Assembly (NCBI RefSeq): GCF_054482525.1
Contig: NZ_CM137006.1
DNA length: 64,000 nucleotides
Direction: 5' to 3' (one strand)
Shown: piece after piece, positions 951 to 54,020 of the stretch
Layout: every line of letters begins with the position of its first letter
How positions within the stretch are numbered: position 1 is the first letter of the stretch
Translations under genes and position numbers: made by a program
The notes under the pieces: model-generated
Told to the model about the DNA's origin: nothing
Seen by the model: only the letters and a program-made list of their open reading frames with translations
Databases searched by the model: none

Positions 951-1799
951 TTATTGCCGAACCAGTCTTGTGGTCGATGGGACAAAATCGCTATTACTGC
1001 GCCACGGGTTAATGTCCAGACCGCCACGACGGGTATAACGTGCGTAAACGCTCAATTTCTCTGGCTGGCAGAAGCGTAACAGGTCATTAAAGATGCGTTC
1101 CACGCACTGTTCGTGGAACTCGTTGTGATGACGGAAAGAAACCAGGTAACGCAGCAGTTTTTCTCTGTCAATTTGGCGTCCACGATACTGAATTTGGATC
1201 GATCCCCAATCTGGTTGATGGGTGATCAGGCAGTTTGATTTCAGCAGGTGGCTGACGAGCGTCTCTTCTACTACTTTTTCGCCACTGGTGGCATTCTCCA
1301 GATAGTCAGTAGTGAATTCATAGTTATCGATAGTGATATCCTGGTCATCAATGCAAGTGCCATTGAAATGACCTATCGGTTGGCCTTCCAGTTCATCAAG
1401 ACGATATAACGCCACGCTAACCTTACCCTGGGCGCAAGTGCTTAAGTCGCGCTCCAGCGTCTGGCGCACCTCATCCCAGTTATTAAAACGCGTCTGGTTA
1501 AAACTGTTGAGATAGAGCTTAAAACTCTTCGACTCAATCAGATTTGCGCTGGTGTAATCAAGTTCAACATGACCGACGGCGACCTGCGGCAAACCTTTCG
1601 CATTCAGCCAGGAAAGTTCATACAGCGTCCAGATATCCGTACCGTGAAAAGGCAGGTTATCCGCTTTCAGACCCAGCGGATCGCGATTCAGACTACGCGG
1701 AACGCCTTGCAGTAGGCTGGCGTCATAGGTATCCCGGTAATCGGTTGATTTTCCAAGAGTCAGGCCCGCAAGTGCCTGATGGTTTGCATAAGAAGACAT
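951..1799 (-). CDS. queF: NADPH-dependent 7-cyano-7-deazaguanine (preQ0) reductase QueF
   Basis: 282-aa [47 protein letters not shown]..., recognised as E. coli QueF. Confidence 0.93.
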
Positions 1800-1866
1800 G
1801 TTTCACCGTCATAAACCAGATAAACTAAACGACAAGTGTATCTGGTTTAAGTGAAGAGAGAAATTA

Positions 1867-2412
1867 GTGGACGATTTGACCGCACAAGCCCTGAAAGATT
1901 TTACTGCACGCTACTGCGATGCGTGGCATGAAGAGCATAAAAGCTGGCCGTTAAGTGAGGAACTGTACGGCGTTCCTTCACCGTGCATTATTTCAACCAC
2001 CGAAGATGCCGTATACTGGCAACCCCAGCCGTTTACCGGGGAACAAAATGTAAACGCGGTTGAACGCGCTTTTGATATTGTGATACAACCCACAATTCAT
2101 ACCTTTTATACGACTCAGTTTGCCGGGGATATGCATGCGCAGTTTGGCGATATCAAACTGACATTGCTACAAACCTGGAGTGAAGACGACTTCCGTCGGG
2201 TGCAGGAAAATCTGATTGGTCATCTGGTGACTCAGAAAAGGCTAAAATTGCCGCCCACGCTATTTATCGCGACGCTGGAAGAAGAGTTAGAGGTCATCTC
2301 GGTGTGTAATCTCTCCGGTGAAGTGTGTAAAGAGACGCTGGGAACACGTAAACGGGCGCATTTAGCCTCAAATCTTGCGGAATTCCTTAATCAACTTAAG
2401 CCTCTTCTGTAA
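1867..2412 (+). CDS. syd: SecY-interacting protein Syd
   Basis: 181-aa ORF (GTG start) [27 protein letters not shown]..., recognised as Syd; divergent from queF. Confidence 0.9.
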
Positions 2413-2431
2413 TCCAAATACCCCATCTGGT

Positions 2432-2449
2432 TGTGAGAGATCTCTTACA
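2432..2449. promoter_or_regulatory. 18-bp palindrome TGTGAGAGATCTCTTACA upstream of csrB; UvrY(SirA)-type binding box
   Basis: Perfect inverted repeat about 190 bp upstream of the csrB start; matches the UvrY/SirA box described for csrB promoters. Confidence 0.6.
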
Positions 2450-2623
2450 GACTCTGTAGGAGATCGCCAGGAAATAAGCGAATACTTAAAAAGATAAGAA
2501 TCGTTATTTTCATTTAAAATCAATATATTGCTTGTTAATCCTTAACTTTCATATGAAATTTTCCTTAAGGCATTGTCTGTAAGCGCCTTGTAAGACTTCG
2601 CGAAAAAGACGATTCTATCTTCG

Positions 2624-2989
2624 TCGACAGGGAGTCAGACAACGAAGTGAACATCAGGATGATGACACTTCTGAAGGACACACCAGGATGGTGTTTCAGG
2701 GAAAGGCTTCTGGATGAAGCGAAGAGGATGACGCAGGACGCGTTAAAGGACACCTCCAGGATGGAGAATGAGAACCGGTCAGGATGATTCGGTGGGTCAG
2801 GAAGGCCAGGGACACTTCAGGATGAAGTATCACATCGGGGTGGTGTGAGCAGGAAGCAATAGTTCAGGATGAACGATTGGCCGCAAGGCCAGAGGAAAAG
2901 TTGTCAAGGATGAGCAGGGAGCAACAAAAGTAGCTGGAATGCTGCGAAACGAACCGGGAGCACTGTGAATACAGTGCTCCCTTTTTTTA
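2624..2989 (+). ncRNA. csrB: CsrB small RNA (CsrA-sequestering decoy RNA)
   Basis: About 365 nt carrying around 20 CAGGA(U/A)G / GGA motifs (caggatg, aaggatg, ccaggatgg...), ending in a GC-rich hairpin ccgggagcactgtgaatacagtgctccc plus T7 at 2954-2988; lies between syd and yqcC as in K-12; 5' end approximate. Confidence 0.88.
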
Positions 2990-3033
2990 TTCCTGCTATC
3001 CTTCGCGGCAGTTTTTCTTATTGAGGTTGCTTT

Positions 3034-3363
3034 ATGACCACTCATGACCGCGTTCGTCTCCAGTTGCAGGCGCTTGAAGCGTTACTGCGTGAACATCAGC
3101 ACTGGCGAAACGATGAACCCCAGCCGCATCAATTTAACAGTACCCAACCGTTCTTTATGGACACCATGGAACCACTGGAGTGGTTGCAGTGGGTGCTTAT
3201 TCCGCGAATGCACGATTTGTTAGATAACAACCAGCCGTTACCGGGCGCTTTTGCCGTTGCTCCCTATTATGAAATGGCGCTGGCGACGGACCATCCGCAA
3301 CGCGCGCTTATTCTGGCTGAGCTGGAAAAACTGGATGCTCTTTTTGCGGATGATGCGAGCTAA
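3034..3363 (+). CDS. yqcC: DUF446-family protein YqcC
   Basis: 109-aa ORF MTTHDRVRLQLQALEALLREHQHWRNDEPQP..., immediately upstream of truC. Confidence 0.85.
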   Translation: MTTHDRVRLQLQALEALLREHQHWRNDEPQPHQFNSTQPFFMDTMEPLEWLQWVLIPRMHDLLDNNQPLPGAFAVAPYYEMALATDHPQRALILAELEKLDALFADDAS

Positions 3364-19887: not shown

Positions 19888-19919
19888 AAAAATGCCAGCC
19901 TTCGGGCTGGCATTTTTTA
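19888..19919. terminator. Rho-independent terminator shared by convergent eno and ygcG
   Basis: aaaaatgccagccttcgggctggcattttttat: GC stem with A-run on one side and T-run on the other. Confidence 0.75.
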
Positions 19920-25277: not shown

Positions 25278-25330
25278 TTAGCGATTATGCCCTTATGATA
25301 AAAATTATCTCCAGTTACCAGAGATAATGA

Positions 25331-25377
25331 GAAAGGTAACTTCCCTCTCGCGGGGGAAGTTACCTTTCTTTTTTTTT
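25331..25377 (+). terminator. Perfect 15-bp stem hairpin followed by T9, 25 nt upstream of the ygcW start codon
   Basis: gaaaggtaacttccc-tctcgcgg-gggaagttacctttc followed by ttttttttt; classical intrinsic-terminator architecture on the + strand. Confidence 0.55.
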
Positions 25378-53989: not shown

Positions 53990-54020
53990 AAAAGGTCCGA
54001 TGCCCATCGGACCTTTTTAT
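53990..54020. terminator. Bidirectional terminator hairpin between the decarboxylase operon and ygbN
   Basis: aaaaggtccgatgcccatcggacctttttat. Confidence 0.6.

Follow-up and report, generated by a model that had tools for sequence, protein, structure and literature searches.

Overlapping divergent promoters are said to be a classical class among closely spaced divergent gene pairs, and their description is attributed to Beck and Warren, 1988. Compact divergent promoters may contain a palindromic operator, as bioA/bioB does: in the bioA/bioBFCD control region of E. coli, the promoters are contained in an imperfect palindrome of about 40 bp, which is a proven BirA operator.

Bidirectional promoters, as described by Warman et al. 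(bioRxiv 10.1101/2020.01.31.928960; PMC12825309), feature pseudo-symmetrical TAnnnT sequences on both strands and generate divergent mRNAs; polymerase binds in either orientation, but not in both, and the promoters are typically weak. Their divergent starts are separated by 7–25 bp, 18 bp being the commonest distance, with 10 and 23 bp also noted; they flank, or fall within, an overlapping -10 element common to both. The basal activity of symmetric promoters is usually too low for competition between polymerases to matter (Warman et al. 2026, PMC12825309).

The region analyzed here is the 67-bp gap (1800–1866) which parts two divergent genes, queF (951–1799, minus strand) and syd (1867–2412, plus strand, with a GTG start), in a stretch of 64,000 nucleotides of E. 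coli DNA, indicated in the following as the window. The region is matched in 5425 of the 5426 complete E. coli genomes, with the same queF and syd annotations, which confirm the gene identities given in an earlier note, made from the sequence alone. Positions 1760–1900 are identical to MG1655, whose coordinates, subtracted from 2927147, give those of the window.

The gap contains an inverted repeat with arms of 10 nt, AAACCAGATA (1813–1822) and TATCTGGTTT (1839–1848). The earlier note had described it with a 15-nt spacer and an end at 1847: the repeat is indeed present, while the spacer measures 16 nt and the last base is 1848. The arms are actually perfect over 11 nt (1812–1822 and 1839–1849) and, when one mismatch is allowed, grow inward to 15 nt (1812–1826 and 1835–1849), leaving a centre of 8 nt. 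The left 10-nt arm begins 14 bp from the first base of the queF start codon (ATG, A at 1799), and 19 bp lead from the end of the right one to the syd GTG (1867).

We consider it likely that two overlapping divergent sigma-70 promoters have their core in this palindrome, whose inner halves would be made up of their -10 hexamers, facing each other. The elements of the region are listed below, along with the evidence on which each one was located.

1812–1849, both strands: whole palindrome, from a repeat search and our own script.
1803–1807, minus strand: Shine-Dalgarno-like GGTGA of queF, alignment columns 65–69.
1819 and 1820, plus strand: flank of the putative syd promoter, with G at -14 (1819) and A at -13 (1820).
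1821–1826, plus strand: putative syd -10 hexamer TAAACT, from conservation; the mapped syd start lies 8 nt past its last base.
1827–1834, both strands: shared spacer, which would hold the discriminators and start sites of the two promoters, alignment columns 35–44.
1828–1829, minus strand: two queF transcription starts, each on a U of a TTT run, with a leader of 29–30 nt, from SMRT-Cappable-seq, 87 reads.
1834, plus strand: syd transcription start (A), with a leader of 33 nt, from SMRT-Cappable-seq.
1835–1840, minus strand, read from 1840 down to 1835: putative queF -10 hexamer TACACT, from conservation; it lies 6–7 nt upstream of the mapped queF starts.
1842, minus strand: G at -14 of the putative queF promoter.
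1855–1863, plus strand: syd ribosome-binding region AGAGAGAAA, alignment columns 5–13, 91–100% identical and nearly invariant.

According to this proposal, TAAACT would drive syd and TACACT would drive queF, each within a promoter featuring a G at -14 and no recognisable -35. RNA polymerase would bind in either orientation, melting a common segment, composed of the 8-bp spacer plus one hexamer, and would start syd at 1834 and queF at 1829 or 1828, the two starts pointing apart. Each transcript would cross the -10 box of the other promoter, and each mRNA would contain one arm only. Since the 67-bp gap holds two facing TAnnnT boxes, the symmetry would be a by-product of their presence.

Conservation was evaluated on 80 loci, ranging from Escherichia to Yersinia, Serratia and Pantoea, collected by searching species-representative genomes with a QueF query. 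In all of them syd lies upstream of queF, next to it and in divergent orientation, and the gap between the two genes is 63–72 bp long throughout Enterobacteriaceae. In the orientation of queF, the conserved core reads (CAGG)A-TA(C/A)ACT-N7-10-AGT(G/T/C)TA-(CCTG), corresponding to one TAnnnT hexamer for each strand, the two facing each other. Of 73 short intergenic regions, 72 contain the pattern TAnnnT-N6-11-AnnnTA a single time, in the aligned position, and in these both hexamers carry the T-12, A-11 and T-7 that characterize a -10 element. Other genera feature TACACT, TAGACT, TACAAT, TAGAAT or TATAAT on the syd side, and TAAACT, TACAAT or TAGAAT on the queF side: the variants alter the middle positions, often towards TATAAT, and keep T1, A2 and T6. 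As judged from the alignment, this is the known signature of a sigma-70 -10 element, not the pattern of a dyad. The G at -14 is also kept, in 55 of 58 sequences on the queF side and in 57 of 58 on the syd side.

Among 59 distinct Enterobacteriaceae intergenic sequences, core columns are 90–100% identical. As a neutral yardstick, 53 four-fold degenerate queF sites from the same genomes were used: their majority base has a mean frequency of 0.61, and no site is invariant. Within the core, conservation is poor only in the spacer between the hexamers, where columns are 42–81% identical, mostly within the range of the four-fold sites; the spacer appears to evolve at about the neutral rate, with the hexamers being invariant. 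Pairing of the outer AAACC/GGTTT of the arms is limited to Escherichia, Citrobacter and Salmonella and is absent from 40–46 of the 59 sequences, the innermost of these outer pairs being formed in 8 of the 59. The conservation across Enterobacteriaceae raised in the earlier note holds for the core (90–100%, vs 61% at four-fold sites) and not for the outer AAACC/GGTTT, limited to one clade. Its placing of the repeat in the control region shared by the divergent queF and syd is supported as well: the element is conserved, acts in cis and serves both genes. In Yersinia and Serratia, where the gap is enlarged to 130–136 bp, the hexamer pair adjoins queF in the former and syd in the latter; in both it stays together, and thus behaves as one unit.

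A few natural variants are found. E. coli E69 (CP089930.1, 2435–2500) features a 1-bp deletion in the spacer, which brings the distance between the hexamers from 8 to 7 bp. In E. albertii, an A to G change in one arm (CCGGATAC) breaks the perfect repeat, and both hexamers are intact. In one of the 5425 genomes, E. coli FDN-9 (NZ_CP158140.1), a 35-bp deletion (1791–1825 of the window) has taken away the queF start codon and Shine-Dalgarno sequence, together with the arm next to queF and most of the syd -10 box; queF is annotated by PGAP as shortened, and the deletion represents a natural mutant of the element. A Dcm site, CCAGG, present in many genera, was judged incidental, as it is absent in E. 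coli.

The frequency of inverted repeats in the window was compared with that found in dinucleotide shuffles, with spacers of up to 30 nt. By chance, 1.55 repeats with arms of at least 10 nt, and 0.3 with arms of at least 11 nt, are expected in each window; 15 and 10, respectively, are observed. A single repeat of the queF/syd kind, taken alone, could still be a chance occurrence. A palindrome due to chance or to neutral evolution, devoid of function, or else a DNA structural element such as a cruciform, would agree with the roughly 0.3–1.5 repeats of such size expected per 64 kb, and with the restriction of the outer AAACC/GGTTT to the Escherichia/Citrobacter/Salmonella clade. Both are very improbable here: the repeat is considered non-random because it is conserved, with 90–100% identity in core columns against a neutral benchmark of 61%, and the transcription start sites, described below, fall at its centre. 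Moreover, 11-bp arms with a 16-nt spacer form cruciforms poorly.

The 14 other perfect inverted repeats of the 64-kb window feature arms of 10–16 nt, and are ten times more numerous than expected from the shuffles. They include 25330–25369, the longest one, with 16-nt arms, 19888–19917 and 53990–54017, and are probably terminators or REP-like elements. The possibility that the queF/syd repeat is itself an intrinsic terminator was discarded: it is not reported by a terminator scan, its stem is rich in A+T, and both genes are transcribed away from it.

Start sites had been predicted from conservation, before any start-site data, at about 1833 for syd and about 1828 for queF. Mapped starts are available in the SMRT-Cappable-seq operon tables of MG1655 (Yan et al. 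2018, PMC6131387), which come from one study with two growth media. One start is listed for syd (b2793), at 2925313, reverse; for queF (b2794), starts are listed at 2925317 and 2925318, forward, with 87 reads in the transcript table. Values for the reverse strand are 1-based, as csrB is listed at 2924524, its annotated 5' end. Those for the forward strand are 0-based: gcvB is listed at 2942695 and annotated at 2942696, and in 24 forward starts the listed base is a pyrimidine in 75% of cases, while the next one is a purine in 62% and never a C. The queF starts are therefore located, in 1-based coordinates, at 2925318 and 2925319.

In the window, the syd start corresponds to 1834 (A), 8 nt downstream of TAAACT; those of queF fall at 1829 and 1828, both U, at 6 and 7 nt past the end of TACACT. 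All these distances are comprised in the interval, about 6–9 nt downstream of a -10 hexamer, where starts are expected. The syd and queF starts are 5–6 bp apart, and are both contained in the 8-bp centre of the palindrome.

In E. coli, queF starts on a U inside a TTT run (G-TTT-AG; 1827–1830, minus strand), while most other genera feature CAT or AAT in the queF start region, offering an A start. That the U-tract could allow reiterative initiation, or sensitivity to UTP, is pure speculation. The same SMRT-Cappable-seq tables also report a 'novel' transcript, b2793|b4408, resulting from read-through that begins at the syd promoter and continues into csrB (from MG1655 2925313, reverse), and a transcript b2794|b2795 (queF-ppnN) from the queF promoter.

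We infer from conservation and start sites, taken together, that TAAACT and TACACT are elements used by sigma-70. As for the two modes of polymerase binding, their geometry suggests that they are mutually exclusive, because the footprints would coincide. Some features speak against the promoters: both -10 boxes match the consensus at 4 of 6 positions only, and queF starts on a U, which is less usual, 6–7 nt from its hexamer. A consensus promoter scan of 1500–2200 found no promoter, because no -35 is present. The best -35 candidates, selected by eye, match the consensus at 2–3 of 6 positions and coincide with the ribosome-binding site of the other gene: the place of a would-be queF -35 is overlapped by the syd ribosome-binding region, and that of a would-be syd -35 by the queF GGTGA. 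The absence of -35 elements fits a weak, constitutive expression of queF and syd, and may be partly compensated by the G at -14.

Other promoter elements were considered. A sigma-S-type -10 was dropped, as the base at -13 is A or G, not C. In many genera (Klebsiella, Enterobacter, Kluyvera etc.) the syd-proximal arm contains a -35-like TAGACA/AAGCCA, followed after 16–17 bp by TAGTGT in the queF-proximal arm (queF-strand alignment columns 20–25 and 44–49). Together they might form another promoter for queF, also on its strand, plausible by eye in Klebsiella or Enterobacter. It was rejected for E. coli, where it is degenerate and no start is listed near 1815. In the queD promoter (MG1655 2892150–2892190, also covered by the window), the mapped start is preceded by CCGG-TACTCT: the GG-TAnnCT box resembles the GG-TACACT of queF/syd in other genera, and the resemblance may be a coincidence.

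The position of the starts also bears on the suggestion, made in the earlier note, of an mRNA leader structure. The two arms would have to pair in the 5' UTR of queF, of syd or of both, possibly masking the queF Shine-Dalgarno sequence, and give rise to a translational or riboswitch-like control. The whole gap, if transcribed, would fold well (-18.4 and -21.0 kcal/mol, with z of -4.1 and -5.1), and on the queF strand the stem would extend by pairing of UUCAC with GGUGA. Both starts, however, are located inside the spacer (1834 for syd, 1829/1828 for queF), so that the z-scores obtained by folding the whole gap are irrelevant. No primary transcript holds both arms, and, as each mapped transcript has only one, a hairpin between them cannot form in the leaders of these mRNAs. 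The real leaders are unstructured, being no more stable than their shuffles (z of +0.38 and +1.52).

The alignment of the 59 sequences agrees with this result. In the two possible helix registers, paired cells are 71.6% and 76.1%, vs 71.2% and 75.5% for shuffled partners; the observed pairing is reached by 140 of 500 and 122 of 500 shuffles, respectively, and pairs changed on both sides are fewer than the shuffled mean. The covariation score is marginally high (2 of 500), a value which relatedness of the sequences can produce. A Rfam scan of 1600–3100, with E <= 10, found nothing at the repeat or elsewhere in 1600–2600, and only csrB and weak chance matches outside it. The queF/syd repeat shares with preQ1 riboswitches, whose working part is a short hairpin near the Shine-Dalgarno sequence, the association with queuosine-pathway genes; unlike them, its hairpin does not match Rfam and is not transcribed as a unit. 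The preQ1 riboswitch of E. coli (preQ1-I type III), moreover, lies upstream of yhhQ, and controls this gene, not queF (PMC10622847). A control based on pairing of the arms in a leader is thus considered extremely unlikely.

The palindrome could also be an operator, the other suggestion of the earlier note: the binding site of a dimeric transcription factor, with a half-site of roughly CAGG-A-TACACT, controlling queF and syd together, beside or instead of the -10 hexamers. The symmetry, in fact, reaches past the hexamers: CAGG and CCTG, just outside of them, are conserved on both sides (86–98%), and the G at -14 would account for this only in part. Furthermore, the variable third position of the hexamers is weakly correlated between the arms (C with G in 28 sequences, A with T in 10, unpaired in 20), which could reflect either shared ancestry or a real symmetry constraint. 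Other observations make such an operator unlikely. The spacing of the half-sites varies, being 8 bp in 29 sequences, 9 in 26, 10 in two and 7 in one, and reaching 14 in Siccibacter and 23 in Winslowiella, a variation that a rigid dimer would not tolerate. CAGG is one base out of register between the two sides (-17 to -14 on one, -16 to -13 on the other). No second copy of the site is found, with up to 3 mismatches, within the 64-kb window, which includes queD and queE. Finally, the literature, searched in full text for any regulator of queF, yqcD or syd, returned nothing on this region and no regulator linked to it.

It is similarly doubtful that the symmetry is more than that of two -10 boxes, with CAGG/CCTG and the shared melted spacer making up a two-state switch. 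If so, the orientation of polymerase, or a putative symmetric factor, would select between queF, involved in queuosine tRNA modification, and syd, involved in SecY quality control, resulting in anticorrelated or jointly gated expression; such a switch would arise from a geometry outside the defined class of bacterial bidirectional promoters.

Interpreted as two overlapping sigma-70 promoters, the queF/syd element may be compared with the systems described above. It resembles the overlapping divergent sigma-70 promoters, as the regions bound by polymerase would overlap fully and the genes are transcribed apart. In its short gap of 67 bp, each ribosome-binding site takes the position of the would-be -35 of the other promoter. 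Among these it represents a tight extreme, with starts 5–6 bp apart and each -10 box falling between about +2 and +9 of the other transcript. With the class of Warman et al. it shares the symmetry, with TAnnnT on both strands, and the divergent mRNAs; judging from the geometry, polymerase binding might be exclusive here too. It differs in that starts are 5 or 6 bp apart (2925313 for syd, 2925318 and 2925319 for queF), instead of 7–25 bp, and in that the hexamers are separate, 8 bp from each other, and outside both starts. The queF/syd pair was not found in the searchable part of the supplementary files of Warman 2026. As in bioA/bioBFCD, compact divergent promoters would be contained in a palindrome; in contrast with the BirA operator, the spacing of the half-sites is not fixed. 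On the whole, the site fits the older and broader class of overlapping divergent promoters, at its tight extreme.

A different palindrome is found nearby, between the end of syd and csrB, whose Rfam match is at 2632–2991. It is perfect, 18 bp long (TGTGAGAGATCTCTTACA, 2432–2449), and presumably corresponds to the known binding site of UvrY (BarA/UvrY) upstream of csrB.

The queF/syd repeat is real and conserved. Most likely, as indicated by sequence comparison along with the mapped starts, it is also functionally important, as a promoter element of an ordinary kind whose geometry is unusually tight. A conspicuous, conserved palindrome would thus receive an ordinary explanation: within 67 bp there must be room for a promoter and a ribosome-binding site for each gene, and TAnnnT boxes that face each other are necessarily read as an inverted repeat. 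This suggests caution, since such repeats should not be called operators or RNA hairpins in the absence of start-site data. Unless a regulator is found, the implications are limited to promoter architecture. In this respect, queF/syd is a clean natural example of divergent starts 5–6 bp apart, just outside the range of 7–25 bp which defines bidirectional promoters, and the pair could be used to test the competition between polymerases at the tight extreme.
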